This document shows positions 30,732-61,540 of a DNA stretch of 64,000 nt, one piece after another. The notes under the pieces were generated by a model that searched no databases, was not told where the DNA came from, and saw only the letters and a program-made list of their open reading frames with translations. Source of the stretch: Chitinophagaceae bacterium (lineage in GTDB: Bacteria > Bacteroidota > Bacteroidia > Chitinophagales > Chitinophagaceae); assembly GCA_004322015.1 (NCBI GenBank), contig SCQT01000032.1, positions 44,981-108,980 on the forward strand. The letters are read 5' to 3'. Position 1 is the first letter of the stretch. Every line of letters begins with the position of its first letter. Position numbers and translations under genes: made by a program.

Positions 30732-30797
30732 AGGGGGATCGTGAATCAATGTCGTTTAGATAACGAATTTTCTATTTCAGTTTGATTTAAGAACACC

Positions 30798-30882
30798 GAT
30801 TAACGATCCGAAGGTTCGGATTAAGATTTTCGATCCGGTGAGCACTTCTGAATCCGATCTTTCGGATCAAAAATCGTTAATC
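30798..30882. repeat. Long imperfect palindrome with nested small hairpins
   Basis: Outer arms GATTAACGAT (30798-30807) and ATCGTTAATC (30873-30882). Inner hairpins ATCCGA/TCGGAT lie at 30806-30821 and 30852-30867. Confidence 0.75.
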
Positions 30883-40354: not shown

Positions 40355-43300
40355 ATGCAAAAGACGAATATTTATTTTTATAAGAAATCCTTCATTTCCC
40401 TGATCCTTCTTCTTTTTTCTTTTCCATGTATTTTATTAGCTCAGCCTCTTCCGCCGGTTGCGCAGGGACTTCATTTTACTTCTTTGCCGTTGAAGTGGTA
40501 TGAGGCTGTTCCATTAGGCGATGGCATGCTTGGCGCTTTGGTATATGAAAAAGATAATCATCTCCGTGTAGCACTGGACAGGGCCGATCTGTGGGATTTG
40601 AGATCTGTAAAAGAATTTGACAGCCGGGATTTTTCGTATCATTGGATTTATGAACATGTGATCGGCAAAGATTATGAACCCGTTCATAAACTGGTGGATT
40701 ATCCTTATGATCACGATGCTGCCCCTACTAAGATCCCTGCTGGCGCCTTAGAATTTCCCACAGCTGATTTTGGAAAAATAAAATCCGTTGATTTAAATAT
40801 TCACACAGCCACTTGTTTTATCCAATGGGAAAACGGAACGTCGGCAACGATCTTTATTTCAGCAAAAGAAAATGCCGGTTATTTTCGCTTTGATCATTTA
40901 CCGGAAAATTTGACCTTTTTTGCACCTGTGTTGGATGCCCCGGCTTATCAGGCCACTCATTTTGATGCATCGGGTAATGCCGTAGTTGGAGGTCAGGATC
41001 TCGCGCGCTTGGGATATCCAAAAGGAACAATTAAAAAAGGGAATCATATAATAAGCTATTATCAGCGGGGATGGGGGCACTTTAGTTACAACATTACAGT
41101 TTGCTGGAAACATCTTACGGATCGTTCCGTAGAAGGGACATGGAGTATTTCTTCGGATGGCTCTCCTTATTCAGCGAAACAAAAGGCTTCTGAGATCGCT
41201 GCAACTGCACTGAAAATACCATTTGCCCGCACCTGGAATGATCATAAAAGATGGTGGGATGATTATTGGAACCAATCGTCCGTAACCCTGCCTGACCCTG
41301 TATTGCAGCACCAGTATGATATGGATATGTATCTCTTTGCTTCCGCTTCCAGAAAGGGAGATCTCCCGATCACCCTGCAGGCAGTATGGACTGCCGACAA
41401 TGGTAAGTTGCCGCCCTGGAAAGGTGATTATCATAATGATCTGAACACACAATTAAGCTATTGGCCCGGCTATACAGCCAATCATTTGCCGGAATCAGCA
41501 GCCTTTACGGACTGGCTTTGGAAAGATGAGCCGGTTTTTACAAAATATACGCGAAGATTTTTTAAAGATAGCGGATTAAATGTGCCCGGTGTTTGTACGC
41601 TGACCGGTGAACCCATGGGCGGGTGGGGGCAATATTCTTTATCACCGACGGTATCCTGTTGGTTATCTCAGTATTTTTACTGGCAATGGATATATTCCGG
41701 AGATTATGATTTTTTAAAGCAACGAGCCTATCCCTGGATAAAAGCAGCAGCCACGCATATAGAAAGCATTGCTATTAAAAATAAAGAAGGCTATTGGCAG
41801 CTTCCTATCTCTTCCAGCCCCGAATTTTTTGATAATGAACTAAAAGCCTGGTTTCTGCAAACTTCTAATTATGATCTGTCACTTATACACTGGTTACTAA
41901 ACACAGCCGTTCAAATGGCTGATACGCTTCATTTGCAAAAAGAGGCCATACATTGGAAAACTTTCTTGGACGGCTGGCCTTCACTTGCTCTTAATCCTGC
42001 TGACAGCGCGCTGCTGGTCGCGCCGGATATTCCATATAGCTTTTCACATCGTCATTTTTCTCATTTAATGAGTATTTACCCGTTGCAATTAATAGACTGG
42101 TATCAGGGAGAAAAAGACAGAAAAATAATACAAGCCAGTTTGCAGGAATTAAAAGAATACGGGCCATCCGAATGGATGGGATATTCTTATGCCTGGTTAG
42201 CCTGCCTGAAAGCCGTGAATCAGGATGGCGCCGGAGCGGAGAATGCACTGAAAATATTCGCTACAGCATTTTGCTCGCCTAACAGCTTTCACCTGAATGG
42301 CGATCAAAGCGGCAAAGGATACTCCAATGCCACGTATCATCCTTTTACACTAGAAGGAAATTTCGCATTTGCCAGGGGTGTACAGCTTATGTTGATCCAG
42401 CAACATGGCGGCGTTAATTATATTTTTCCTGCTGTTCCTGATAATTGGGAAAAGGTGGGTTTTGAAAAATTGCGTGTACCCGGAGCGTTTTTGATTTCTG
42501 CCAAAAAAGAAAACGGGATGATTACTGAGGTTAGGATTAAATCTTTAAAAGGAGGGAAAATAAAACTTCATAATCCGTTTATTGATCAAAAAATGAAAGT
42601 GATTGGTACACAGGTGACTAATAGCAAACGAAATAATAAAACACTCACTTTTTCTATGTCATCCGGGCAGGTAATTTTTTTAAAAAGAGAAATACCTTCC
42701 ATCGTTAAAGGGGGAAAAATATTAGGTGCTGATATTTCCTTTCTCCCCCAGTTAGAAGCCCGCGGTGAAAAATTTTATGTGGATGGAAAACAACAAGATG
42801 CTATCCGCATCCTGAAAGATCACGGATTTAATTTTATACGGCTCCGTATCTTTGTAAATCCTGCAGCGGACAGCGGTTATTCCCCGCGAAAAGGATTTTG
42901 TAATCTTTTTCATACCGAGCAAATGGCAAAAAGGATCAAGGCAGCCCACATGGGCTTTCTGCTCGATTTTCATTACAGCGACACCTGGGCGGATCCCGGA
43001 AAGCAATATACACCTTCAGCATGGAAGCATGATGATTTTATACAATTAAAGCAAGAAGTGTATAATCACACTAAAAAAGTAATTACAGCCCTAAAAAGGC
43101 TGGGAACACCACCCGATATCGTACAGATTGGGAATGAAATCAACCACGGTATCTTATGGCCCATAGGAAGCATCCACCATCCGGATACTTTGGCTGCCCT
43201 TTTAAAATCAGGTATAGCCGCAGTGAAGAAAGCGGATCGGGACATTAAGATCATGCTGCATATAGCGCTTGGGGGACAAAATGCGGAATCCAGATCTTTT

Positions 43301-48154: not shown

Positions 48155-51100
48155 ATGAAAAAGAAACCTAAAATGCCTGTTCATGGTAGGTTAAACATCA
48201 GGCGTAAAGTTTTAGTAAGTATGAAACTTATTTTTTTACTCACATTTGTTTGTTGTATGCAGGCGTCTGCCCGCGTATTTTCCCAGGATGTAAAGATTGA
48301 TCTGACACTCGAAAATACGAATATTACGAGGGCGCTGCGTATTATCAGCCACAAGAGTGAATACAGGTTTTTATATAATAATGACCTGCTTCCTCAGGAT
48401 ATGACTGTTAATATTGTCGCTAGACAGGAAACGGTTCCAGAAATCATGAAAACTATTTTGGGGAACACAGGCCTTACCTTCCGGGTTCTCAGCAACAAAC
48501 TGATCGCCATCGGCTATCAGACTCAGATGATTGAAAATATTACGGGCACGGTGACCGATTCTGCGGGACATCCACTGGTAGGTGTTACCATACAGATCAA
48601 AGGCACAACCATAGGAACAGTAACTGATGCGAACGGTAACTTTTCTTTAGAGGCGCCGGAAAATGCGACCTTACTGGTTTCTTACATTGGCTATGTGACG
48701 AGGGAAGTTCCGGTGAGCGGACAGACCCGTCTTAATATTGTGTTGCAAACTGCAGCCACAGGCTTGAACGAAGTGGTGGTTACTGCCTTAGGCATCAAGA
48801 GACAGGAAAGAGAGTTGGGCTATGCCACACAGGAAATAAAAGGCAGTACACTGGAAACAGTGAAAGGCATAGATGTGGGGACTTCGCTTACCGGTAAGAT
48901 TTCCGGATTGATGGTAAAGAATAGCCCGGATTTTATGTCGTCACCTGAAATTACCATGCGTGGAGAAACGCCGCTGCTGGTCATTGACGGAGTACCTTAT
49001 GGTAATATGTCCCTGAGAGAGATCCCTGCTGATGACATTGAATCCATTAACTTTCTGAAAGGAGCCACTGCTTCTGCACTGTACGGATCCAGAGGAGGAA
49101 GTGGTGCTATCATGGTGACCACAAAGCATGGGGCAGGTAAAAAAGGATTTTCGGTTTCTGTGAATAGCAGCACCATGTTCCAGGCTGGTTATCTCGCGAT
49201 TCCCGAAATGCAAAATAAATATGGTCGGGTGGTGAATACGGCCACCAATACTTATGTTCGCTCAGGTGACGGTTCATGGGGACCTCCGCTGAACGGACAA
49301 GATGTTATTCAATGGGATCCTGTCAGCAAGACGATGAAGGCTATGCCTTTTATTGCGAGGGGGAAAGATAATTTTAAGAATTTCCTTCGTCAGGGATATA
49401 TTTTAAATAACAATGTCAGCGTAAGCCAGGTGGGAGACATGGGTGGTTTCAGGGCATCCGCTACCTGGGTACAAAATAGGGGCGCTTACCCTAATGCCCG
49501 TTTTGATAAAATTACATACAGTGTGGGTGGTGATATCAAATTCGATCGTTTTACCCTCACCACCTCTGTGGCTTATAATAATGAGTCTTCACCCAATATG
49601 GGCTTCAGCGGATACACCGGTTATGATCCGATGTATAGCTTGCTGGTTTGGGGTTCTCCTGACTGGAATATCCTGGATTATAAAAACTACTGGGTGGTCC
49701 CAAATGAAGTGCAGAACAGCAGTTATACAGCAACTATTAATAACCCCTATTTCGACAGGTACCAAAGGACGCATTCTTATAAAAAAGATGTTTTTAACGG
49801 GCAGTTTACTGCCACTTATGATGTGGCCGGCTGGCTGAAGGCTATGCTCAGGACGGGCTATGATAATTACAGCAACAAGCAGGAAATTACTATTTCAAAA
49901 GGTTCATTCCAGGGCGGTGGCTCCAGTACCGTCTTAAACGACGGCTCGCAAGTATGGGGAGAATCGCAAAGGGGTTCTTACAATGTAGGTATTGGCAGAG
50001 GTTTCAGCACAAACACAGATGCGATGCTGACAGCACAAAAGAATGTGAATGATTTCTCAGTAAACGGGTTTCTGGGTGGTTCTATCTTTTATCAACAGAA
50101 CGAAGGCATGGAAGCCATGACACAGGGAGGTTTATCTATCCCTGCATTTTATTCGCTGAAAGCATCTATGAATCCCGTTTATGTCAATGCTTTGACCTCC
50201 AAAGAACAGATTAACAGCTTTTACGGAAAATTAGGATTAGGGTGGAAAAACCTGGCATTTGTGGAAGGAACCTTTCGTAATGACTGGGCATCCACCCTGC
50301 CTAAAGCGACCCGTTCTTACTTATATCCCAGTGTCTCAGGAAGCTTTATCCCAAGTGAATTATTCCATACCAATGACTGGCTGTCGTTTTGGAAATTGCG
50401 CGGGTCCTGGACTACATATCGTACACCGGCAGGCATTTATGACATAAACAATGTATATACCATCACCCCCAATGCATGGGGAACTATGAGTTCCGCATCC
50501 TTCCCCACCAGCATACGCCCTTCCAACATTCATGCGGAAGGTTCCGGATCCACAGAAGTGGGTACTAACGCCAGTTTCCTAGGTAACAGGATATCCTTAG
50601 ACGTAACGCTTTACAAGAAAAAGATGTATGATTTTATTGTCAAAGCACCGATCAGTCCCTCCTCGGGATTTACTTCGGTTTATACCAACAGTAATGAAGA
50701 ACGTACACGCAGGGGAATAGAAGTTACTCTGAATGCTACGCCTGTTAAAATAAAGGATTTCTCATGGGATGTGAGTTTTAACTGGACAAAGTATGCCACT
50801 TTTTTCACCAGGCTCGATTCTCAATATTCTGTGAATAACAGGGATTGGGTAAAGGTAGGCAAGCGTGTGGATTATTATACTATCAATCAATATCAGACAG
50901 ATAATAAGGGCGATATTGTTTTCAACAATGGTGTTCCCACCTATAAGCCGATATTATCTTTGGCTGGATATGCTGATCCTGACTGGATTTGGGGATTTAA
51001 TACTAATCTCCATTATAAAAGCTTTTCCTTATCTCTGTCCATGGATGGGAGGGTAGGCGGTCTGGCGCAATCTACCACCGAAATGTATATGTGGATATCC

Positions 51101-51568
51101 GGCAACCACCCCAATTCTTTGACGGAGGCAAGATATGAGGATGCCACCAACGCGGGTACGAAAAACTTTTTAGGGAAAGGGGTAAAAGTAGTATCGGGCG
51201 CTATCACGTATGATGCCAATTATCACGTAGTAAGCGATACCCGTGTGTTCGCTCCCAATGATGTGTACACCACTTATAAATCTTATATATCGGCCCTCCA
51301 TAAAGGCACCGCCTGGGGCGGGAATCCTTCTCCGGTGGATTTATACAGCACTACTTTCTTAAAATTAAGAGAAGTGGCGCTGACCTGGCAAATGCCCGTC
51401 TCCATGAGGGAGAGGATCCACTCTAAAGGGATAGCTGTTTCCCTGGTAGGTCAAAACCTGATTTATTGGGCAAAACAGTTTAAGTATTCTGACATTGACG
51501 GCGGAACAGAAAACTTTTCCGATCCTTCAATTCGATATGTCGGTTTCGATATCAAGCTTGATTTTTAA
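48155..51568 (+). CDS. SusC/RagA-family TonB-dependent transporter with N-terminal STN signalling domain
   Basis: STN domain (ITRALRIISHKSEYRFLYNN), CarboxypepD_reg domain (ITGTVTDSAGHPLVGVTIQIKGT), a plug with NFLKGA..ALYGSRG, and a C-terminal ...FDIKLDF. Confidence 0.9.
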   Translation: MKKKPKMPVHGRLNIRRKVLVSMKLIFLLTFVCCMQASARVFSQDVKIDLTLENTNITRALRIISHKSEYRFLYNNDLLPQDMTVNIVARQETVPEIMKTILGNTGLTFRVLSNKLIAIGYQTQMIENITGTVTDSAGHPLVGVTIQIKGTTIGTVTDANGNFSLEAPENATLLVSYIGYVTREVPVSGQTRLNIVLQTAATGLNEVVVTALGIKRQERELGYATQEIKGSTLETVKGIDVGTSLTGKISGLMVKNSPDFMSSPEITMRGETPLLVIDGVPYGNMSLREIPADDIESINFLKGATASALYGSRGGSGAIMVTTKHGAGKKGFSVSVNSSTMFQAGYLAIPEMQNKYGRVVNTATNTYVRSGDGSWGPPLNGQDVIQWDPVSKTMKAMPFIARGKDNFKNFLRQGYILNNNVSVSQVGDMGGFRASATWVQNRGAYPNARFDKITYSVGGDIKFDRFTLTTSVAYNNESSPNMGFSGYTGYDPMYSLLVWGSPDWNILDYKNYWVVPNEVQNSSYTATINNPYFDRYQRTHSYKKDVFNGQFTATYDVAGWLKAMLRTGYDNYSNKQEITISKGSFQGGGSSTVLNDGSQVWGESQRGSYNVGIGRGFSTNTDAMLTAQKNVNDFSVNGFLGGSIFYQQNEGMEAMTQGGLSIPAFYSLKASMNPVYVNALTSKEQINSFYGKLGLGWKNLAFVEGTFRNDWASTLPKATRSYLYPSVSGSFIPSELFHTNDWLSFWKLRGSWTTYRTPAGIYDINNVYTITPNAWGTMSSASFPTSIRPSNIHAEGSGSTEVGTNASFLGNRISLDVTLYKKKMYDFIVKAPISPSSGFTSVYTNSNEERTRRGIEVTLNATPVKIKDFSWDVSFNWTKYATFFTRLDSQYSVNNRDWVKVGKRVDYYTINQYQTDNKGDIVFNNGVPTYKPILSLAGYADPDWIWGFNTNLHYKSFSLSLSMDGRVGGLAQSTTEMYMWISGNHPNSLTEARYEDATNAGTKNFLGKGVKVVSGAITYDANYHVVSDTRVFAPNDVYTTYKSYISALHKGTAWGGNPSPVDLYSTTFLKLREVALTWQMPVSMRERIHSKGIAVSLVGQNLIYWAKQFKYSDIDGGTENFSDPSIRYVGFDIKLDF

Positions 51569-51601
51569 CGGTTTTACAGACCATTTTAAAATAAAAGAAT
51601 T

Positions 51602-53131
51602 ATGAACAGGATATTAAAAAATACAGGATTATATGTTGTTTTCGGCATCTCGTTGCTGACATCCTGTAATAAATTCGACGAGATAAATAATAATCCGGAT
51701 GCTACCAACAAGGTGAATGCATCGTTGTTGGCTACCAAAATAATTTTGCAAAACCTGAAGTACCAGGGCAGGGATGCCAAAGCTTACCTGTCGGATAATG
51801 GCATATCCAAATATATTGCTTATGGTAATGAGACCATTTTGTCCACGCAATATAATTATTTGGGGGCTGCAGATTTCGGTCCCATGACCCTTGTTCCCAA
51901 TGTGAACAGTATGCTGGCTAATGCCGCAGGAAGCCAGATGGAGAATTCCTATAAAGGATTAGCCAAATTCTCAAGGGCCTTTATGTTTTATTATCTGACC
52001 ATGGAAGTGGGAGATATTCCCTACAGCGCAACCGGTCAGGGAGCCAAGGGAAGCATCCGTCCGGTGTACGATCAGCAGGAGGCTGTGTTTAAAGGTATCC
52101 TCGATGAATTGAAAGATGCTGACGGATTTTTCGCCCAAGGCATTAAGTTCGACGGCGACCCCACACCTTATAATGGCGATCCCGATAAATGGCGAAGAGC
52201 CTCTAATGCCTTTGCCCTGAAAGTATTAATGTCCCTGGCAAATAAGGCGGGAGATGCCAATCTTAATATTAAAGGCAGATTTGCAGATATTGTTAATAGT
52301 GGTGAATTGTTGCAATCCAATACCGGTTTCCTGGGTTTAAATTATTCTGCCACTAATCCACACCCTATGTCGGGTACAAATGATCTGTTTACCAGCAGGA
52401 CAATTATCAGCCATTTGGTGATGGCTAATTTAAAAGCATTGAATGACAGAAGGCTTTTTTATTTTGCTGATCCTGCAAAGTCATTAGTCGCGGGTGGTAA
52501 GTCCGGCTCTGATACTGCTGCTTACGCAGGAGCCAATGTGACTGATGATTATAACACGATCACTGCCAATCTGATCGCTGACAAATATTCCCTTCTTAAT
52601 TCACGCTACCTGAAAGTACAGGCCGGAGATCCGCGAATTATGGTTTCTTATGCAGAGCAGCAGTTGATATTAGCTGAAGCGCGCATTTTAGGATGGATCA
52701 CGGCAGGTGCAGCCGGAGATTATTACGAATCGGGGGTAAAAGCCGCCCTGGCGACTTATACATCTGTTGATCCTTCTTTTGTGCATGGTAACCCGATTAC
52801 CCAAACTTATATTAATAATTATTTTACCGGGGAAGCAGCGTTTAAATCCAATCCGGATGATCAGCTAAAACAAATATGGCTTCAACGTTATTTACTACAG
52901 TTTATGCAGGATCCTGTTTCTGCCTTTTTTCTGCAACGCAGAACCGGTTACCCGGCATTTCCTATCAATCCTGCCACCTCACTCAACGTAAATAATCCGA
53001 ATGCCATTCCGGTACGTTGGCTGTATCCAGGCTCTGAATTAAATTATAATAAAGACAATCTGATCCAGGCGCTCAATCGCCAGTATGGCGGGGTAGATGA
53101 TATTAATAATAAAATGTGGCTGTTAAAGTAA
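51602..53131 (+). CDS. SusD/RagB-family nutrient-binding lipoprotein
   Basis: Lipobox LLTSC. It lies immediately downstream of SusC and has a TPR-like helical composition. 509 aa. Confidence 0.8.
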   Translation: MNRILKNTGLYVVFGISLLTSCNKFDEINNNPDATNKVNASLLATKIILQNLKYQGRDAKAYLSDNGISKYIAYGNETILSTQYNYLGAADFGPMTLVPNVNSMLANAAGSQMENSYKGLAKFSRAFMFYYLTMEVGDIPYSATGQGAKGSIRPVYDQQEAVFKGILDELKDADGFFAQGIKFDGDPTPYNGDPDKWRRASNAFALKVLMSLANKAGDANLNIKGRFADIVNSGELLQSNTGFLGLNYSATNPHPMSGTNDLFTSRTIISHLVMANLKALNDRRLFYFADPAKSLVAGGKSGSDTAAYAGANVTDDYNTITANLIADKYSLLNSRYLKVQAGDPRIMVSYAEQQLILAEARILGWITAGAAGDYYESGVKAALATYTSVDPSFVHGNPITQTYINNYFTGEAAFKSNPDDQLKQIWLQRYLLQFMQDPVSAFFLQRRTGYPAFPINPATSLNVNNPNAIPVRWLYPGSELNYNKDNLIQALNRQYGGVDDINNKMWLLK

Positions 53132-53175
53132 GCAGGAGTTATATTACATATCCTGCAAATTGCAGGTAAAGAATA

Positions 53176-53209
53176 AAAACCCCGGTCCAGGCAGAGCCGG
53201 GGTTTTTTA
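53176..53209 (+). terminator. Rho-independent terminator after SusD
   Basis: Stem AACCCCGG (53178-53185) pairs with CCGGGGTT (53197-53204), followed by TTTT. Confidence 0.75.
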
Positions 53210-53397
53210 ATAAAATCTGACTCTGCCGTAACATTTTTCCCTTCAAATCCGTCTTCCATACATCATGATGATAAGCAACCTTTTTCGTTCCTGCTTGTCC
53301 TTAGTATAATTCTTAACATCCCCACAGTTTTAATAAACCGTTCATCACGGATTTTTACCTTTTAATAATTATATAGTAGTATGTATTACAAGGTACA

Positions 53398-53405
53398 TAT
53401 CTTTG
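53398..53405 (+). promoter_or_regulatory. Bacteroidota -7 box (TAtcTTTG)
   Basis: Exact TAnnTTTG match 40 nt upstream of the ATG at 53445. Confidence 0.4.
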
Positions 53406-53444
53406 TCATGCCGTTTGTTTAGACAAGTATTAAAATAATTAAAA

Positions 53445-55949
53445 ATGAAACCACGTCTTTCCTTAACCATCTCATTGATCCTCTGCTTATTGTACAACTC
53501 AGTAAAAGCACAATCTAATATCAAGACAATCCTTCAGGAGCCAAACCATACGGCAGAGATAAGAGGAAAAGTAGCCGATGAAAATCATCAGGCGATTCCT
53601 TTTGCCACAATCACTCTTTTGAAAGCCGGCGATTCATCTCTGGTCAAAGGCGACATTTCTGACCAGGAAGGGAATTATGATTTTTCAGCAATTCCCAATG
53701 GCAAATACATAGTTTCTGCGTCAGTAATAGGGATGATTAAGGCGTATAGTCAGCCGTTTACCTTGGATGACGCTAAAAAAACCTTAAATGTCTCAGATTT
53801 AATATTAAAGCAAAATACCAATTTGCTGAAAGGAGTCAGCATCACATCTACCAAACCATTTATTCAAAGGGAAATTGACAAAACTGTCGTTAATGTAGAG
53901 AATAGTATTGTAAGCGCAGGCAGTAGTGCCTGGGAAATATTGCAGAAATCCCCGGGCGTCACAGTAGATAACAGTAATAATACTATCCGCCTTCAGGGAA
54001 AGACGGGGGTGCAGATATATATAGACGGAAGACCTGCCTACCTGTCTTCCGATCAATTGGCAACGGTGCTGAAGAATATGAACTCGGGGTCCATCAAATC
54101 TATCGAGATCATGACTCAGCCGCCTGCTAAATATGATGCTGCCGGAAATGCAGGCATCATTAATATTATCACCCGTAAAAACAAAGAAAAAGGATTCAAC
54201 GGCAGTCTGACGGCGGGGATCGGGCAGGGGAGGCATTTAAGAGAAAGTGCGGGAACCAATCTGAATTACCGGAATGGAAAGATAAACCTGTACGGTAATT
54301 ATGATTTTAACCACAATATTTGGTGGAACAATAACTATATCACAAGGAATTTTTATGATGGCACGGGTAAAACATTGAGTACGCGTACAGAACAGTACAG
54401 TTATCATAATTCACCTAACTATAATCATGATTTTAAAGCAGGAATAGATTATTACCTGAATGATAAAAATACTCTCGGCATCATGATGAACGGGTCTTTG
54501 AATCCTTCCACGGATGACCGTTATAATACTACCTGGTTTAAAAATGGAAGCGGGTCTATCGAAAATACAAGCCTGACGCACAGTACGGAAAAGGCGCATT
54601 GGACCAATTATACTTATGACCTGAACTACCAGGGATATTTCGATACTACAGGAAAGGAATTAGATATTGATCTGGCTTATTCCAGGTTTGATAATGCAGC
54701 TTTGGATAATTATCATACGTATGCCGTTTATCCGGACGGATCAGCGTTACCTGATTTGCCCGGCTCGCCGAATCCGAATATTCGTAAAGGTTCGATCCCG
54801 ACTATCATTGATATTAAAACTGCTAAAATTGATTACACCCTGCCTTTAAAACATCAGGTGAAATTGTCTTTCGGAGCTAAAACAAGCCTGGTAACATCTG
54901 ATAATAATATCCAATATTTTCAGTTGGATAATACAAATAAGCAATGGCTATACGATTCTGCCAGCAATCATTTTAAATATACGGAAAATATTAATGCAGC
55001 CTATATTAATTTTAACAAAGAATTTAAAAAGGGGTGGGGGCTTCAGCTTGGATTAAGAGGAGAACAAACTGTTTCCTCAGGACATCAGTATAATAATGAT
55101 TCTACTGTTAAAAAGAATTATTTTCAATTATTCCCGACGGTATTTATCAATAAGAAATTGGATAAAAACAATACATTGAGTTTATCTTACAGCCGCCGGA
55201 TTGACCGCCCCGATTACCAGACATTGAATCCTTTCCGTTACTATCTGGATCCTTATACCTATGAGGAAGGCAATCCTTATCTGCAGCCGCAAATTTCCAA
55301 TACGGTCAATCTTTCTTATGCTTATAAGAGTCTTTTAATTGCGTCGTTAAGTTACAGCCATGTCAGTGATGTAATGACGCAGGTTTTAAAGCAGGATGAT
55401 TCCGCACTGATAACCTATCAAACCATGGAAAACCTGGCTCAAATGCAGAACGTGGGATTAAATGTGTCTCTTTCCATCCCGGTTACTTCCTGGTGGATGA
55501 GCAATAATTCGGTGAATGCATTTTATAATGTATTCCGGGGGGAATTTTTGGGAGCTTATCTGAACTTCGGAAAACCGGCATTTACTGCTAATACAACTAA
55601 CAGCTTCACACTTGGAAAAGGATTCACTGCGGAACTGAGTGGATATTATAATTCGACTATGCTATGGAGCATATTTACCATTCGGCCTCAATATTCCGTA
55701 TCGGCAGGCATTCAGAAAACACTGATGAAAGACAAGGCAACATTAAAGTTGAATGTAAACGATATTTTTCATACGCAACATTCTTTTGCTTCTGTCAAAT
55801 ATCAAAACCTGGATATAACCTCCCTCAATCACTGGGATAGCCAAAGAGTAGGGTTGACGTTTACCTGGAGATTTAATAAAGGAAATGTGAAGCCGGTGCA
55901 TCATCATCAGTCGGCCATAGAAGAAGAACAGGATAGGATCAAGAAATGA
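53445..55949 (+). CDS. TonB-dependent receptor / outer membrane beta-barrel family protein with CarboxypepD_reg domain
   Basis: Signal peptide, the region IRGKVADENHQAIPFATITL, a plug-like region and a long beta-barrel. It has no SusD partner. Confidence 0.75.
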   Translation: MKPRLSLTISLILCLLYNSVKAQSNIKTILQEPNHTAEIRGKVADENHQAIPFATITLLKAGDSSLVKGDISDQEGNYDFSAIPNGKYIVSASVIGMIKAYSQPFTLDDAKKTLNVSDLILKQNTNLLKGVSITSTKPFIQREIDKTVVNVENSIVSAGSSAWEILQKSPGVTVDNSNNTIRLQGKTGVQIYIDGRPAYLSSDQLATVLKNMNSGSIKSIEIMTQPPAKYDAAGNAGIINIITRKNKEKGFNGSLTAGIGQGRHLRESAGTNLNYRNGKINLYGNYDFNHNIWWNNNYITRNFYDGTGKTLSTRTEQYSYHNSPNYNHDFKAGIDYYLNDKNTLGIMMNGSLNPSTDDRYNTTWFKNGSGSIENTSLTHSTEKAHWTNYTYDLNYQGYFDTTGKELDIDLAYSRFDNAALDNYHTYAVYPDGSALPDLPGSPNPNIRKGSIPTIIDIKTAKIDYTLPLKHQVKLSFGAKTSLVTSDNNIQYFQLDNTNKQWLYDSASNHFKYTENINAAYINFNKEFKKGWGLQLGLRGEQTVSSGHQYNNDSTVKKNYFQLFPTVFINKKLDKNNTLSLSYSRRIDRPDYQTLNPFRYYLDPYTYEEGNPYLQPQISNTVNLSYAYKSLLIASLSYSHVSDVMTQVLKQDDSALITYQTMENLAQMQNVGLNVSLSIPVTSWWMSNNSVNAFYNVFRGEFLGAYLNFGKPAFTANTTNSFTLGKGFTAELSGYYNSTMLWSIFTIRPQYSVSAGIQKTLMKDKATLKLNVNDIFHTQHSFASVKYQNLDITSLNHWDSQRVGLTFTWRFNKGNVKPVHHHQSAIEEEQDRIKK

Positions 55950-56050
55950 TGGTTGGATGGCTTAATGGTTGGATTGTTTGATAGCTAAACTTAATGCCAG
56001 TTTAACCATAAGACCATAAAACCATAGAACCATAGAACAATAGAACCATT
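55947..56050. repeat. Inverted pair of 8-nt-phased arrays (ATGGTTNN x5, spacer, NACCATAR x6) starting at the TBDR stop codon
   Basis: ATGG/ATTG/ATAG at 55949, 55957, 55965, 55973 and 55981. CCAT at 56006, 56014, 56022, 56030, (CAAT 56038) and 56046. Confidence 0.8.
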
Positions 56051-56591
56051 CATAATTTTAATCTTTGATTTGGAGTATTTAACCGATTATTTTCCTCGTT
56101 TTATCGAATAAATTTTCTTAACGGAAGAAGCCGTTATTTCTTTGCAGTCGTTTGTTAAAGGAAATAAAAATAGTGATAAATAGGATGAGCGGTATAACCG
56201 GTTGTAACATTTCTTACGTTTATTCGTCTTAATGAAGAATGAAAATGAAACCACATTATAACCATTATGTATGTATCAAAACCGGACAAAAAGTGTTCGG
56301 AACCGTACAACACCGAACGGGTAGAATGATTAATCAGATTGAATCTCAACGTTCTTTATCAGAGGTATGAATTGGCACAGTCTGTGTCTTTAAGCAGCGG
56401 GTAAACCAATACAAAAATAATTTAACTATCTTATTAAAAATAAACCTAAACTTATGGCCCCATGAAGCAACCTTTAAACTTTTCCCTGTCTTTATAAATA
56501 ACAAGCGCGCAATTAAAGACTGAAGTTAACTACAACCACATTTATTACAACACAGATTAAATTTATTCTCAAAACATTAAAAAAATTTATT

Positions 56592-57038
56592 ATGAAAACG
56601 ATCATCAAAATGCTTTTTGCAGCATTATTAATCGGCGGAACTGCTTTCGCAGCCAATGCGCAGGATTCTCAACCCCAGGCTAATCAAAAACCGGGTAAAT
56701 ACGAGGTGAATACTCAATTACTTGAACAGACGGGAACGTATGAGCAACGGAAGCTATATCGCGAGTTTTTGACGGAGTATATGAAAAATTGTCCTTACAT
56801 CAGCAACTTCAGCATTCATGAAGCGATGGGTTCTCATAACAATCACGAGGTGGTTTGGACCTATAACGTAAACGGATGGAATGATATTACCAGGTTTTAT
56901 AGCTGGGTCAGTGATCAATTAAAATCCACAAAAGAAGACGGATTGAAAAAAGCTATGACACCTTATGCGCCGGATTATGCTATCGGAGGGCAAATTCGTG
57001 TAGAAAAAAGAAGCAAGGCAGCTCTTGCAAAAGATTAA
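56592..57038 (+). CDS. Secreted hypothetical protein
   Basis: Signal peptide ending in ANAQ. 148 aa. No family was recognised. Confidence 0.45.
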   Translation: MKTIIKMLFAALLIGGTAFAANAQDSQPQANQKPGKYEVNTQLLEQTGTYEQRKLYREFLTEYMKNCPYISNFSIHEAMGSHNNHEVVWTYNVNGWNDITRFYSWVSDQLKSTKEDGLKKAMTPYAPDYAIGGQIRVEKRSKAALAKD

Positions 57039-57170
57039 AAGTGTGGGATGTTTAATTATAAAGCACCCCGGTTCTCCGGGGGGCTGCCGGGGATGGGATA
57101 AAGATGCGGTGCGTTGCGTCTCTACATCTCCGGCAGCCCTCATACAGTTGGGTTTTTGGTTGATAGAAAT

Positions 57171-57201
57171 AATCCCCGGTATCCACCGGGGATTTATTTT
57201 A
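57171..57201 (+). terminator. Rho-independent terminator
   Basis: Stem AATCCCCGG pairs with CCGGGGATT across the loop TATCCA, followed by TATTTTA. Confidence 0.65.
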
Positions 57202-57250
57202 GTATGCGTGCAACCTTTTCTAATTTTATTGTCTTTAAGTAAGAACATCC

Positions 57251-57825
57251 ATGGAAAATGAAGCGCTTTTACCTGACTCTTTAGTAACCCGTTGCCAAAA
57301 AGGCGACATGCCGGCTGCTAAACAGTTGTATGAGCAATATGCTAAGGCCATGTATAATATTTGCCTCCGGATGATGAATAATGTCGAAGATGCAGAAGAT
57401 ATGCTGCAGGAGGCTTTTTACCAGGTATTTAAAAATATTGGGAGCTACAGGGGAGAATCTACCATCGGTGCATGGATTAAAAGTATTGTGGTAAATAAAT
57501 GCCTGAATCAGCTAAAAAAGAAACGGCTGACGCTGATAACCACAGATGCTGTAGAATATGCAGTGGAAGAAGATACGATGGATGAGCGGGCATATACTTA
57601 TACAGTGGAAAATGTAAAAAAAGCCATCCAATATTTACCGGATGGATACCGGATGGATACAGGGTGGTATTGACCTTATACCTTTTTGAGAATTATTCTC
57701 ACAAGCAAATAGCAGAGCGGTTAGGTATTTCAGAATCCACAGCTAAAACACAATATATGCGTGCTAAACAGAAAATAAGAGAATATTTTAAAGAGAATGA
57801 TAGAGACTTAAAGCTGTGCGTCTGA
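57251..57825 (+). pseudogene. ECF sigma-70 family factor disrupted by an 11-bp tandem duplication
   Basis: Sigma-2 is intact (DAEDMLQEAFYQVF). The ORF stops at 57673 after ...LPDGYRMDTGWY. Deleting one CCGGATGGATA copy restores LPDGYRVVLTLYLFENYSHKQIAERLGISESTAKTQYMRAKQKI... up to the TGA at 57823-57825. Confidence 0.85.
57638..57659. repeat. Perfect 11-bp tandem duplication (CCGGATGGATA x2)
   Basis: Read directly: 57638-57648 is identical to 57649-57659. Confidence 0.97.
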
Positions 57826-57900
57826 TAATCTGAAAGGATTATATAATCAGGGGCGCACACAATCGTGTGCCCGCGACAGGTTTTCAATATAATTTGGAAT

Positions 57901-58482
57901 ATGAAAAATGCTGACGAGCTGGGAAAATTTATAAGTGACCACCGGGATGATTTTAATTCTGATCTCCCTCCTGATAAGATATGGGATCGGATAGAAAGAA
58001 GATTGAGATCAGTAGGGCAGGAGAGTAGCCGCGAGCGAGGTATAAATATGTCCCCGTTGCCTCGTTTGGGGAAAAGATGGATAAGTGCCGCAGCCGTATT
58101 GCTGTTATGTATTTCATTGGCTGCATTTGTCCGTACTTACCAGGTCAGGCAACAGATAACAGATACAGTTATACCCTCCGGCCTGCAGCAAGCACAAGCC
58201 TATTATGAAAACCGTATTGCCATGCAGATAGACCGCATAAAATCTTTTGAATCCATGCATCAAAATAAGGCAGATACTTCTTTATGGCAATTGTTCGGCC
58301 GGCGGGATGAAGAATATAACAGGATCAGGAGAGCTTTACAGGAAAACCCAGGCAATGCCCATGTGCGTGCCGCTTTTGTAGAATATTACCGCTCACGGTT
58401 AAGCATACTGGATCAAATTGAACAACGGATGGAGACGACGGATGCTTCAGAGAAGGCGGTTAGCAGTGAACAGCGGCAGTGA
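57901..58482 (+). CDS. Putative anti-sigma factor (single-pass membrane protein)
   Basis: It lies immediately downstream of the ECF gene. One TM (WISAAAVLLLCISLAAFV) and a cytoplasmic N-terminal helix. The ATG at 57901 is preferred. Confidence 0.55.
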   Translation: MKNADELGKFISDHRDDFNSDLPPDKIWDRIERRLRSVGQESSRERGINMSPLPRLGKRWISAAAVLLLCISLAAFVRTYQVRQQITDTVIPSGLQQAQAYYENRIAMQIDRIKSFESMHQNKADTSLWQLFGRRDEEYNRIRRALQENPGNAHVRAAFVEYYRSRLSILDQIEQRMETTDASEKAVSSEQRQ

Positions 58483-58540
58483 ATGTTCAATGGTAAACAG
58501 TTAATCAATTTTATCCTTTTTATAAAATAAATATTCAAGT

Positions 58541-59638
58541 ATGAAAACGTATATACGCTTAGGAATATTTTATCTGCTTATGGCGCCCTTATGCACTATG
58601 GGTAAAGACAAGGTAATAGCTCCTGTTACACGTACAATTACCAAAACATTTGATGTAAGCAGCGGGGCGCGACTGACTGTAAGCAACAAATACGGAAAAG
58701 TCAATTTACATACCTGGGATAGAAATCAGATCAAGGCTGTGATTACCGTTACAGCCAATAGTTCCGATAGGGATAACTCACAAAACCTGGTCAACCTGGT
58801 AAACATTCAAAGTGATCAGTCGGGGAATGATGTGACTCTTACAACCATATATAAACCGGAATCAGGCGGTTCTTTCTGGTCCAGATTTTTTGGCGGTGGA
58901 GGCAATCACAGAGGTAATACAGTCAGGATTGATTATGATGTATATGTCCCGCAATCTCTTGCTATATTGCATATTGATAATAACTACGGGGATGTCGCAG
59001 GGAATGATATACCGGGGAATTTTTTCCTGAATATCAACTATGGGAATTTTTATCTGAATAAAGTAGCGGGAAGCCTGCAGTTAGACGCCAATTACAGCGG
59101 CGGATCAGTGAATGGCATCGGCAAAGGAAATATTAATGCGAACTATACAAATTTCAATGCCGGACAGATCAACAACCTGCAAATACATTCCAATTATTCC
59201 GATTGTAAAATCTCCAATGCCGGCGAATTGCAATTTAACGGCAATTATGGTAATTTCTCCGCTGATCAGATTGACGGCATTACAAGCCGTTCCAATTATA
59301 CCGATTATAAGATCGGCACCTTGCAACAACAGGCCAATATGAGTACCACTTATGGAGATATTAAGATACAAACTTTAGGAGATCAGTTAAAAAGTATGAT
59401 GATCCATTCCACGTATGGCAATGTAAAAATAGGAATTCCCCCTAATCTCCCTTTACGGCTGAACATTGATCTTACTTCAGGAGATATTCATACCGGTAAT
59501 CTTCCGCTTCAGATAGAAGAAAAAATCAGTAACCACGGTAGGAATATTTTAAAAGCGGTTATTGCAAGAAAAGGAAATACCCCCCCCGTCGTACAGATAC
59601 AGGGAACCTATTCTGATGTTACATTAATGGAAAAATAA
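58541..59638 (+). CDS. DUF4097-like beta-helix repeat protein (putative adhesin)
   Basis: Signal peptide. Reiterated units of about 19-20 aa are built around N-Y-G/S/T-x-F/Y (NYGDV, NYGNF, NYSGG, NYTNF, NYSDC, NYGNF, NYTDY, TYGDI, TYGNV). Confidence 0.6.
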   Translation: MKTYIRLGIFYLLMAPLCTMGKDKVIAPVTRTITKTFDVSSGARLTVSNKYGKVNLHTWDRNQIKAVITVTANSSDRDNSQNLVNLVNIQSDQSGNDVTLTTIYKPESGGSFWSRFFGGGGNHRGNTVRIDYDVYVPQSLAILHIDNNYGDVAGNDIPGNFFLNINYGNFYLNKVAGSLQLDANYSGGSVNGIGKGNINANYTNFNAGQINNLQIHSNYSDCKISNAGELQFNGNYGNFSADQIDGITSRSNYTDYKIGTLQQQANMSTTYGDIKIQTLGDQLKSMMIHSTYGNVKIGIPPNLPLRLNIDLTSGDIHTGNLPLQIEEKISNHGRNILKAVIARKGNTPPVVQIQGTYSDVTLMEK

Positions 59639-59671
59639 GAATATCTTAAAACTACTTTAAAATATATCACC

Positions 59672-60397
59672 ATGAAATCAACGAAAAAAATCATTGCCAT
59701 TATGGCAACTTTCACCGGACTGTTTTTATTGTCAATAACCTGCTTTGCGCAGACCATTGCAGGAAACGGGAATATTCAATCCCAGGAACGCACAACCGGA
59801 AACTTTACCGGAATAACCTGCTCAGGTACTTTTCATGTTATTTTGACCCAGGGTAATGAAAACAAACTGAAAGTAGAAACAGATGAAAATATACTCCCTT
59901 ATGTCATTACGGAAGTGAGAGGGAATGAGCTGGATCTTCGGACTAAAAAAGGCGTTACGGTAAGACCCACTCATTCCATCAACGTATATATTACTCTCAA
60001 AAACCTGGAATCCTTCGATGTCAGCGGAGTATGCAAAGCAGAAAGTCAGAATATGCTGCAGTCAGATCACTTGAGGATCAGTATCAGCGGTAGTGCGGAC
60101 ATAAACTTGCGGGTGAGCACTGGTCCCCTCACTGCTAATGTGTCGGGAACCGCTAAAATGAACCTGCAGGGTAAGGCATCCTCTTCCGATTTTCATATTT
60201 CCGGATCGGCCGATGTGATGGCAGGTGATCTTGTCACCGACGGGAGTGAGGTGCGTGTATCAGGCATGGGAAAATTACATCTTAATCCGCAGAAAACACT
60301 TAATGTGTCTATATCGGGTATGGGGAAAGTGTGGTATAAAGGAAATCCTGCCATAAACGAATCTGTTTCGGGAATGGGGAAGGTGATGAAAGAATGA
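59672..60397 (+). CDS. DUF2807 / head GIN domain protein
   Basis: GNGNIQSQERTTGNFTGI...LKVETDENILPYVITEVRGNELDL and repeated SG.A/SGMGK strands. Confidence 0.75.
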   Translation: MKSTKKIIAIMATFTGLFLLSITCFAQTIAGNGNIQSQERTTGNFTGITCSGTFHVILTQGNENKLKVETDENILPYVITEVRGNELDLRTKKGVTVRPTHSINVYITLKNLESFDVSGVCKAESQNMLQSDHLRISISGSADINLRVSTGPLTANVSGTAKMNLQGKASSSDFHISGSADVMAGDLVTDGSEVRVSGMGKLHLNPQKTLNVSISGMGKVWYKGNPAINESVSGMGKVMKE

Positions 60398-60493
60398 TAT
60401 CCGTTTCGATGATCGTTGAATGATTGGTGCAGAAATCCTGTACATTTGCTGAAGGAAGAACAAATGTACAGGGATTTTAAATGGATTGATCAC

Positions 60494-61540
60494 ATGCCAT
60501 ATCGCAGAAATAAAATAACCCGTTATTTTCTCCTCTTTTTATTGGCAATTACAGGATGTAAAGGACAAACTGTAAAGCCTCAAAAAACCCCACCGGTTTC
60601 AAACAGTGCGGATTCTTCATTTGCCAAAGGCGCCGATGTGAGCTGGCTGACCCAAATGGAAGCGGCAGGGTTTAAATTTTATGATACCACAGGCCGGCAA
60701 GAAGATTGTCTTCAGATCCTGAAAGAAAAAGGGATCAATGCCATCCGGTTGCGTGCCTGGGTGAATCCTTCCGGTCGCTGGTGTGGTACAACTGATGTAT
60801 TGAGCAAAGCCCTTCGCGCGCACCAGGCCGGATTTAAGGTCATGATTGATTTTCATTACAGTGATACGTGGGCAGATCCGGTACATCAGTCGAAACCTAT
60901 CACCTGGGTTAATGCAGGCACCAGCCCATTAATAGATTCTGTTTACCAATATACTTATTCCGTATTAAGCCTGTTAAAATCGAATGGCATTATCCCGCAA
61001 TGGATACAAGTGGGAAATGAAACCAATAACGGCATGTTATGGCCAAATGGCATGGCAAGTATTCACATGAATACTTTTGCACAAATGATCAATGCAGGGT
61101 ACAATGCTGCGAAGGCGGTGGATAGCTCTATTCAGGTGATAGTGCATATTTCTAATGGTTATGATAACAATTTATTTAGATGGATGTTTGATGGACTAAA
61201 ATTAAATGGCGCTCATTGGGATATCATCGGTATGTCACTATATCCTGATGCAAATAACTGGCAAAGCTTAGATAACGAATGTCTCTCCGATATGCAGGAT
61301 ATGATTTCCCGCTATGGGAAAAAAGTCATGGTATGTGAAGCGGGTATGAGCTGGACTGATTCCCTTGCCTCCCGTCAATTTCTTACGGATATCATCAGCA
61401 AAGTTAAATCGCTGCCTGCCGGCATGGGTTTGGGTGTTTTCTATTGGGAACCAGAGTGTTATAACTGGATGAATTATACCAAAGGTGCCTTTAATAATAA
61501 CGGACAACCTACTCAGGCTTTAGATGCATTTGAACAATAG
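60494..61540 (+). CDS. GH53 arabinogalactan endo-beta-1,4-galactanase (lipoprotein)
   Basis: Lipobox AITGC from the ATG at 60494. INAIRLRAWVNP, DFHYSDTWADPVHQ, IQVGNETNNG and VMVCEAG motifs. It is a paralog of the C-terminal domain of 40355-43627. Confidence 0.85.
   Translation: MPYRRNKITRYFLLFLLAITGCKGQTVKPQKTPPVSNSADSSFAKGADVSWLTQMEAAGFKFYDTTGRQEDCLQILKEKGINAIRLRAWVNPSGRWCGTTDVLSKALRAHQAGFKVMIDFHYSDTWADPVHQSKPITWVNAGTSPLIDSVYQYTYSVLSLLKSNGIIPQWIQVGNETNNGMLWPNGMASIHMNTFAQMINAGYNAAKAVDSSIQVIVHISNGYDNNLFRWMFDGLKLNGAHWDIIGMSLYPDANNWQSLDNECLSDMQDMISRYGKKVMVCEAGMSWTDSLASRQFLTDIISKVKSLPAGMGLGVFYWEPECYNWMNYTKGAFNNNGQPTQALDAFEQ

Follow-up and report, generated by a model that had tools for sequence, protein, structure and literature searches.

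A perfect 11-nucleotide tandem duplication splits an ECF sigma-factor gene and probably marks a very recent loss of function in one groundwater population

An ECF sigma-factor gene in a 64-kb stretch of DNA from an uncultured Chitinophagaceae bacterium (hereafter the window) carries a perfect 11-nt tandem duplication, by which the encoded protein loses its region-4 helix-turn-helix (HTH). The duplicated allele is restricted to one sample, and the intact allele is present in an otherwise identical clone. We think it very probable that the duplication is a real and very recent loss-of-function mutation in the dominant population of a single groundwater metagenome.

Results

The duplication breaks the gene within region 4

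The 11-mer CCGGATGGATA stands twice head-to-tail, in perfect copies at 57638-57648 and 57649-57659. An earlier note on this DNA had reported this duplication (57638-57659) from the letters alone, and both TRF and a script recover it, with period-11 identity extending over 57636-57660 (25 nt, 2.27 copies, 100% match). The tract is laid out as TAC-CGGATGGA-TAC-CGGATGGA-TAC, and its single-copy ancestor, TACCGGATGGATAC, has a 3-nt direct repeat, TAC, at each end; the identity exceeds 22 nt because this TAC...TAC microhomology flanks the tract. Chance does not explain the duplication: the expectation is ~0.015 perfect 11-nt duplications per 64 kb, and a shuffled 4.5-Mb genome contained 2 period-11 perfect duplications. 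The features of the gene are the following.

57251-57673, plus strand: truncated sigma ORF of 140 aa, with region 2, the linker and the first region-4 residues, then MDTGWY and TGA
57616-57622, plus strand: A7 tract (GTA AAA AAA), 14 nt 5' of the duplication
57636-57660, no strand: period-11 tandem tract, 2.27 copies (TRF, script)
57664-57825, plus strand: out-of-frame remainder of region 4 (VVLTLYLFENYSHKQIAERLGISESTAKTQYMRAKQKIREYF...), intact, also readable as a 53-aa ORF with a GTG start

Read from the ATG at 57251, the two-copy frame runs through ...AIQYLPDGYRMDTGWY near the break and ends ...LPDGYRMDTGWY at a stop codon at 57671-57673. The in-frame part of the 140-aa product ends ...AIQYLPDGYR and is followed by six out-of-frame residues, MDTGWY, before the TGA. 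The 53-aa ORF, which starts at GTG 57664, overlaps this stop. With one copy deleted in silico, the frame continues ...LPDGYRVVLTLYLFENYSHKQIAERLGISESTAKTQYMRAKQKIREYF... to a stop at 57823-57825 and encodes 187 aa, so that both frame ends given in the earlier note (57673 with two copies and 57825 with one) are correct.

The one-copy reading contains Sigma70_r2 (PF04542, 56.8 bits, E 2e-15) and Sigma70_r4_2 (PF08281, 60.2 bits, E 1.5e-16) and no further Pfam domain, and it scores 105.5 bits against the NCBIfam ECF superfamily model TIGR02937, for which the cut-off is 42.9. It thus has the make-up of an ECF (group 4) sigma-70 protein, namely regions 2 and 4 without 1.1 or 3, in a length of 187 aa where ~170-200 aa is the rule. 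The gene as present, with two copies, retains only the region-2 half of this architecture. Pfam finds region 2 alone in the 140-aa product, which matches TIGR02937 at model positions 2-119; positions 118-164 of the model are matched in a different frame from the 140-aa ORF, and the 53-aa downstream frame holds the region-4 HTH only (Sigma70_r4_2 positions 18-54, E 1.5e-12). The break falls after the LPDGYR start of region 4, inside the region and not at a domain boundary. These matches bear out the loss of the ECF region-4 HTH that had been read from the letters. In sigma-70 factors, the HTH of region 4 reads the -35 promoter element; from the domain content we infer that a sigma factor from which it has been removed could not direct promoter recognition, and hence that sigma activity would be lost.

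The second copy is present in an independent assembly

The genome draft that contains the window comprises 301 contigs and 4.5 Mb and is 97% complete. Its probable source run is a groundwater metagenome from 2019 (X1), in which 98% of the words sampled from the genome are found. The Logan contigs of X1 are an assembly independent of the window's own, and in them both copies lie within a single unbranched contig of 3,623 nt at ~92x. Adjacent contigs overlap by 30 nt, which implies an assembly word of 31 letters; since the 25-nt tract is shorter than this inferred word, the word graph can neither invent nor collapse it. The X1 contigs also keep a minority SNP (22067 T>G, 14.8 of 106.8 depth, ~14%), and a second metagenome, X2, is without this variant. 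Because a SNP at this frequency was retained, one would probably see a branch in X1 if one-copy cells made up a comparable fraction. These allele calls are made at contig level, where rare variants are dropped (such as one-copy cells below ~10% in X1 or a minor two-copy fraction in X2), and the two-copy call comes from one library and two assemblers, X1 possibly being the window's own source reads.

Across the genome, which holds ~37 ECF-type (alternative) sigma-factor genes, the ECF model gives 39 matches; the gene described here is the only split one, and all others are full length in a single frame. No split sigma-70-family gene was found elsewhere in the 4.5 Mb, and a genome scan returned the sigma-gene duplication as the only gene-breaking one of at least 8 nt. 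With no second broken gene of either kind, nothing suggests that an artefact acted systematically.

One copy is the ancestral state

Eleven orthologues, seven of them from the same genus (61-74% identity) and four more distant (47-54%), align gap-free to the one-copy reading at the site, with the consensus LP(D/N/E)GYR(V/I/T/A)V(L/F)(T/S/N)LY. A scan of one genome per species yielded 249 relatives, chiefly Chitinophagaceae MAGs along with Puia, Ferruginibacter, Flavitalea and Pollutibacter, and the tblastn alignment is unbroken over residues 120-150 in every one of the 80 that were fetched. Given that orthologues and fetched relatives are uninterrupted at the site, we take one copy to be ancestral. 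The range of relatives also marks the organism as an uncultured member of the Chitinophagaceae. A standing repeat tract is absent there from all 80 orthologues and from eight other populations, all of which have one copy; the comparison with other strains that the earlier note had proposed therefore gives a uniform answer. Public protein records contain the one-copy protein, identical over its 187 aa, in a 90%-identity cluster whose eight members all have this length. An exact look-up of the 140-aa product in these records, which may lack those of the window's own genome, returned no entry.

The two-copy allele is confined to one sample

X2 is a sediment metagenome from 2024, sequenced to ~12x in a different study from X1. 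Its contigs show 0 substitutions against the whole 64-kb window, and their sole difference is that 11 bases are left out at 57636. Zero changes in ~64 kb place the divergence between X1 and X2 below ~5e-5 per site at 95%. A public genome, GCA_040961365.1 (contig JBFONQ010000312.1; clone L095), aligns over 11,358 nt to window positions 49251-60619; the alignment has 0 mismatches and one gap, of 11 nt. This genome shares the window's gene order; it may come from the X2 sample and is hence perhaps not independent of X2. The ancestral TACCGGATGGATAC is present both in X2 and in this identical clone. Site-spanning contigs from soil and other metagenomes with more distant strains (X3, X5, X6, X7, X9 and X10) also leave out the 11 bases, and X4 has a loose contig end that reads as one copy; X8, X11 and X12, whose contigs stop at or near the site, were left out of the allele calls. 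With an 81-base query centred on the junction, X1 gave all six sampled words and the other indexed runs gave none. Overall, the two-copy allele is restricted to one sample, on a background indistinguishable from that of a one-copy clone, and it appears to dominate the X1 population.

The age that the earlier note had assigned to the lesion, and its first explanation, a recent inactivating mutation, both gain support from this near-identity (0 substitutions over 64 kb save the 11 bases) and from the intact downstream frame. A decaying pseudogene would carry further disabling changes, and none is seen: the alignment to the one-copy clone holds 0 other mismatches in 11,358 nt, and the genes 3' of the sigma gene are unbroken and match that clone's exactly. 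A plain pseudogene fixed in all strains with added downstream decay, which the note had named as a possible outcome, does not fit either these data or the single copy found elsewhere.

Apart from the allele itself, two metagenomes of different studies, one from groundwater (2019) and one from sediment (2024), contain one and the same clone, with 0 substitutions over 64 kb. This may reflect a shared site, a widespread and very clonal lineage, or a common water or reagent contaminant.

The sigma gene heads a putative envelope-stress operon

The surroundings of the sigma gene suggest an operon with its own promoter, composed of the features below.

57171-57194, plus strand: intrinsic-terminator-like hairpin and T run (10-pair stem with 6 GC pairs, then TATTTT)
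57209-57236, plus strand: ECF-type promoter-like motif TGCAACC-N13-TTGTCTTT, from conservation and a genome pattern search
57901-58482, plus strand: candidate anti-sigma factor, 193 aa, with one predicted membrane span (WISAAAVLLLCISLAAFV), directly 3' of the sigma gene
58541-59638, plus strand: secreted DUF4097 (Toastrack, LiaG-like) protein, 365 aa (PF13349, E 5e-11; NCBIfam LiaG, weak)
59672-60397, plus strand: secreted DUF2807 (Toastrack-type) protein, 241 aa (PF10988, E 2.6e-48)

The hairpin would close an upstream gene for a small secreted protein (56592-57038), which makes the sigma operon a separate transcription unit. The promoter-like motif has the form AAC, 16 nt, GTC and ends 14 nt 5' of the ATG; this form is typical of ECF promoters. 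It is kept in six of seven aligned upstream regions (the window, L003, L004, L005, L007 and L008), and the strict pattern has one match in the 4.5-Mb genome, with 0 for the reversed control. A motif that is both conserved and single in the genome suggests a small, self-regulated regulon, in which the sigma gene would be driven by its own product from 57209-57236.

For the candidate anti-sigma factor, a homologue is detectable at the same position in 39 of 80 loci; the NCBIfam 'anti-sigma factor' match is weak and below the cut-off (24 bits), and Pfam gives no match. A DUF4097 homologue occurs in 72 of the 80 fetched loci and lies 3' of the sigma gene in the loci inspected. The DUF2807 gene has this position in the closest relatives only, namely 2 of 80 loci plus the identical clone L095. 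In a survey of PSP systems, DUF4097, DUF2807 and DUF2154 are grouped into one domain, Toastrack, and operons that join Toastrack proteins to a sigma factor are pointed out (PMC11237479). The main text of PMC7826278 does not mention DUF4097 or DUF2807, and we found no literature linking DUF4097 with ECF and anti-sigma factors. The earlier note had called this a surface-protein operon; its two domain assignments stand, but as both domains are Toastrack, envelope-stress-type is the better label. From the gene content, the sigma/anti-sigma/Toastrack module is probably an envelope-stress-type unit rather than an adhesin operon. The sole runs found under 'RNA' carry the label GENOMIC; they contain diverged relatives at 2-8x and are uninformative for expression.

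At the start of the sigma gene, a separate contig of 45-48 nt (57229-57273 or 57276) appears in X1 and X3 and is deeper than its flanks (99.7 against 86-92 in X1, 22 against 10 in X3). The X2 contigs break and overlap at the same place (57247-57276), and in X4 the sequence 5' of 57226 differs (loose end). The -10-like box, short leader and first codons seem to be common to co-occurring relatives that have a different upstream neighbourhood.

Discussion

A slippage model for the probable knockout

We propose that replication slippage between the two TAC triplets of TACCGGATGGATAC copied 11 bases, perhaps aided by a weak CCATCC/GGATGG hairpin (~-5.5 kcal/mol). The locus has the hallmarks of a microhomology-mediated tandem duplication, in that the unit is perfect and head-to-tail and the ancestral allele is bounded by a microhomology pair. 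The +11 shift would end translation at 57673, with region 2 and LPDGYR kept and the HTH lost. If the operon is self-regulated, as its promoter-like motif suggests, then the sigma, anti-sigma, DUF4097 and DUF2807 genes would be expected at basal level, and the duplication has probably silenced them; the premature stop, 228 nt 5' of the next start codon, could have a polar effect as well. The gene would be restored if one copy were lost exactly, an event probably commoner than ordinary back-mutation, and the reversion figures from S. pombe given below make reversion plausible here. The forward step has only 3 nt of microhomology to act on and should be rare, unlike in evolved contingency loci. 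Taken together, the case is one of an ordinary strain-specific knockout, and nothing points to a site evolved as a switch.

Alternative explanations

Were the second copy absent from the cells and introduced into the X1 data during library preparation, sequencing or assembly, its occurrence in a single run would follow, and the window genome is indeed a draft in 301 contigs whose two-copy assemblies probably both derive from the same reads. Yet two assemblers agree at ~92x with no alternative path, the word graph cannot invent a tract of 25 nt with an inferred word of 31, an 11-nt duplication is not among the known short-read error types, and the genome is without any other gene-breaking duplication of this kind. 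We regard an artefact, which the earlier note had listed as a possibility, as very unlikely. The note had also raised a reversible ON/OFF switch. As a form of bet-hedging, such a switch would have cells gain and lose the second copy frequently, so that cells with and without the ECF regulon would always be present. A perfect tandem duplication can indeed be lost exactly by slippage, for microhomology duplications in S. pombe, reversion was ~100 times as frequent as formation (PMC8639346), the downstream frame is without decay, and the two populations, identical over 64 kb, differ at this site only; a fast-switching hypermutable site would look just like the recent knockout that we favour, X1 and X2 being otherwise identical. 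A contingency locus, however, is a standing hypermutable tract conserved among strains, and here there are 2.27 copies in one sample, with no repeat tract in relatives (a single copy in 80 of 80 orthologues and likewise in eight further populations). With just 3 nt of microhomology to act on, the forward step would be expected only rarely; E. coli yielded detected duplications of this type at a ~20-fold lower frequency than S. pombe (PMC8639346); the junction words are confined to one run; and the contigs of X1 and X2 are unbranched at the site although a 14% SNP is kept elsewhere. As to coexistence of ON and OFF cells, X1 and X2 carry different alleles, and each run has a single allele in its contigs, which drop rare variants. 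With no recurrence in eight other populations, the switch lacks positive support and we consider it unlikely; no more credible is its fuller form, a fast microhomology toggle of the ECF sigma/Toastrack operon that is OFF in groundwater and ON in sediment, with a slip at A7 as a second route to ON.

The truncated gene might instead keep partial function, either as a two-piece sigma factor (140 aa plus 53 aa from GTG 57664) or through a 191-aa product of a -1 slip at A7, and either route could leave some activity in what we otherwise read as a knockout. The GTG overlaps the stop at 57671-57673, and SigO-RsoA of Bacillus subtilis is a natural two-subunit sigma factor. A -1 shift at A7 opens, in the two-copy allele only, a frame of 191 aa that reads ...VKK followed by SHPIFTGWIPDGYRVVL... 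and includes the full HTH, so the A7 tract is a possible leak or second-site suppressor route. Against this, the break lies inside region 4 and the 53-aa piece covers Sigma70_r4_2 positions 18-54 only, the slip product would swap out the conserved AIxxL segment, no slippery heptamer is present from the duplication to the stop, and A7 simply encodes a conserved Lys-Lys, with a 13-codon frame being open by chance about half the time. We hold residual function of this kind to be very unlikely. Programmed frameshifting, which would need to be -1, was considered and rejected: the only in-frame heptamers in the ORF, at 57514 and 57616, are both upstream of the duplication. As a separate observation on A7, the 11-nt insertion would be offset if the tract gained one base or underwent a -1 slip, for a net 12 nt and 4 extra residues; this would be a second, imprecise way back to the reading frame.

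Relation to known systems

The recent knockout that we favour is a new instance of a known mutation type in an uncharacterised regulator. Dan et al. (PNAS 2021; PMC8639346) described microhomology-mediated tandem duplications (MTDs) as reversible loss-of-function mutations. The sigma-gene lesion resembles them as a perfect short tandem duplication in coding sequence, with an ancestral microhomology pair, a frameshift and a wild type recoverable by exact loss of one copy. It differs in dimensions (an 11-nt unit and 3-nt microhomology here, 55-92 bp and 5-8 bp there), in its host, a bacterium, where detected events are much rarer, and in being known from sequence; moreover, the allele appears dominant in its population, whereas MTDs are subclonal.

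In the rpoS819 allele, a tandem duplication likewise shifts the C-terminal frame of an alternative sigma factor and alters regulon output, and such sigma duplication alleles rise in natural or starved populations (bioRxiv 10.1101/460451). RpoS, however, is a group 2 general-stress sigma factor and not an ECF one, and rpoS819 has its last 4 residues replaced with partial activity kept, whereas here the entire region-4 HTH is lost. Simple-sequence-repeat contingency loci, which vary in phase by slipped-strand mispairing (reviewed in PMC12817950), are alike in that a gene is turned off when the number of repeat units changes and the frame shifts, but theirs is a standing multi-copy or homopolymer tract, conserved among strains and switching both ways at a high rate, whereas at this site a single copy is ancestral in every relative. 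The operon resembles Toastrack/Lia-like modules (PMC11237479) in encoding secreted or membrane-anchored DUF4097 and DUF2807 proteins beside a sigma factor, with the order sigma to DUF4097 kept across Chitinophagaceae and relatives; it differs from them in having no PspA, PspC, LiaI-LiaF-TM partner or two-component system.

Taken alone, a strain-specific frameshift that hits one of ~37 ECF-type sigma genes is routine. The interest of the lesion lies in a natural near-isogenic pair, two environmental populations identical over 64 kb that differ only in the integrity of a sigma factor. If the organisms or samples can be obtained, this pair offers a way to learn what the sigma/anti-sigma/Toastrack module of Chitinophagaceae controls, a module that to our knowledge is unstudied in Bacteroidota, and with it one could also measure how often a short microhomology duplication reverts in a bacterium. 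Annotators should mark the gene as frameshifted in this assembly and should not "correct" it.

Other repeats in the window and genome

Two further places in the window showed unusual contig behaviour. At 30738-30880, the contigs of X1 and X2 skip 34 nt (30786 to 30821) and have loose ends in a short-period array, GAATCGTGAATGGTGAATCGCGAATCGTGA..., and the repeat number in the window assembly is probably unreliable there. At 60840-60881, a 42-nt stretch has double depth (185.8 in X1) and also matches, with 4 mismatches, a place ~17.9 kb upstream, mapped near 42965-42996.

A second candidate with an 11-nt unit, at C280:12528-12549, which in the genome scan was the one other duplication of at least 8 nt that on removal joins two long frames, was set aside: it lies between two unrelated genes (MltG-like and YihY-like by eye) and so causes no frameshift. 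A genome-wide tendency to 11-nt duplications was rejected as well. The genome's period-11 excess (26, against 2 in shuffles) is due to an intergenic repeat family with no relation to the sigma-gene duplication. This family is dispersed outside the window in 32 copies, where ~0.5 would be expected by chance (for example C223:15194-15260, C252:72969-73030 and C76:230-410 of genome G000). Every member has the conserved anchor AGTGCGCTTTTA(A/C), and in almost every copy 3-5 repeat units of 11 nt come next; the unit varies by locus among TAGGGCGAAGG, TAGGCTTGATG and TCCATACTTAA types.
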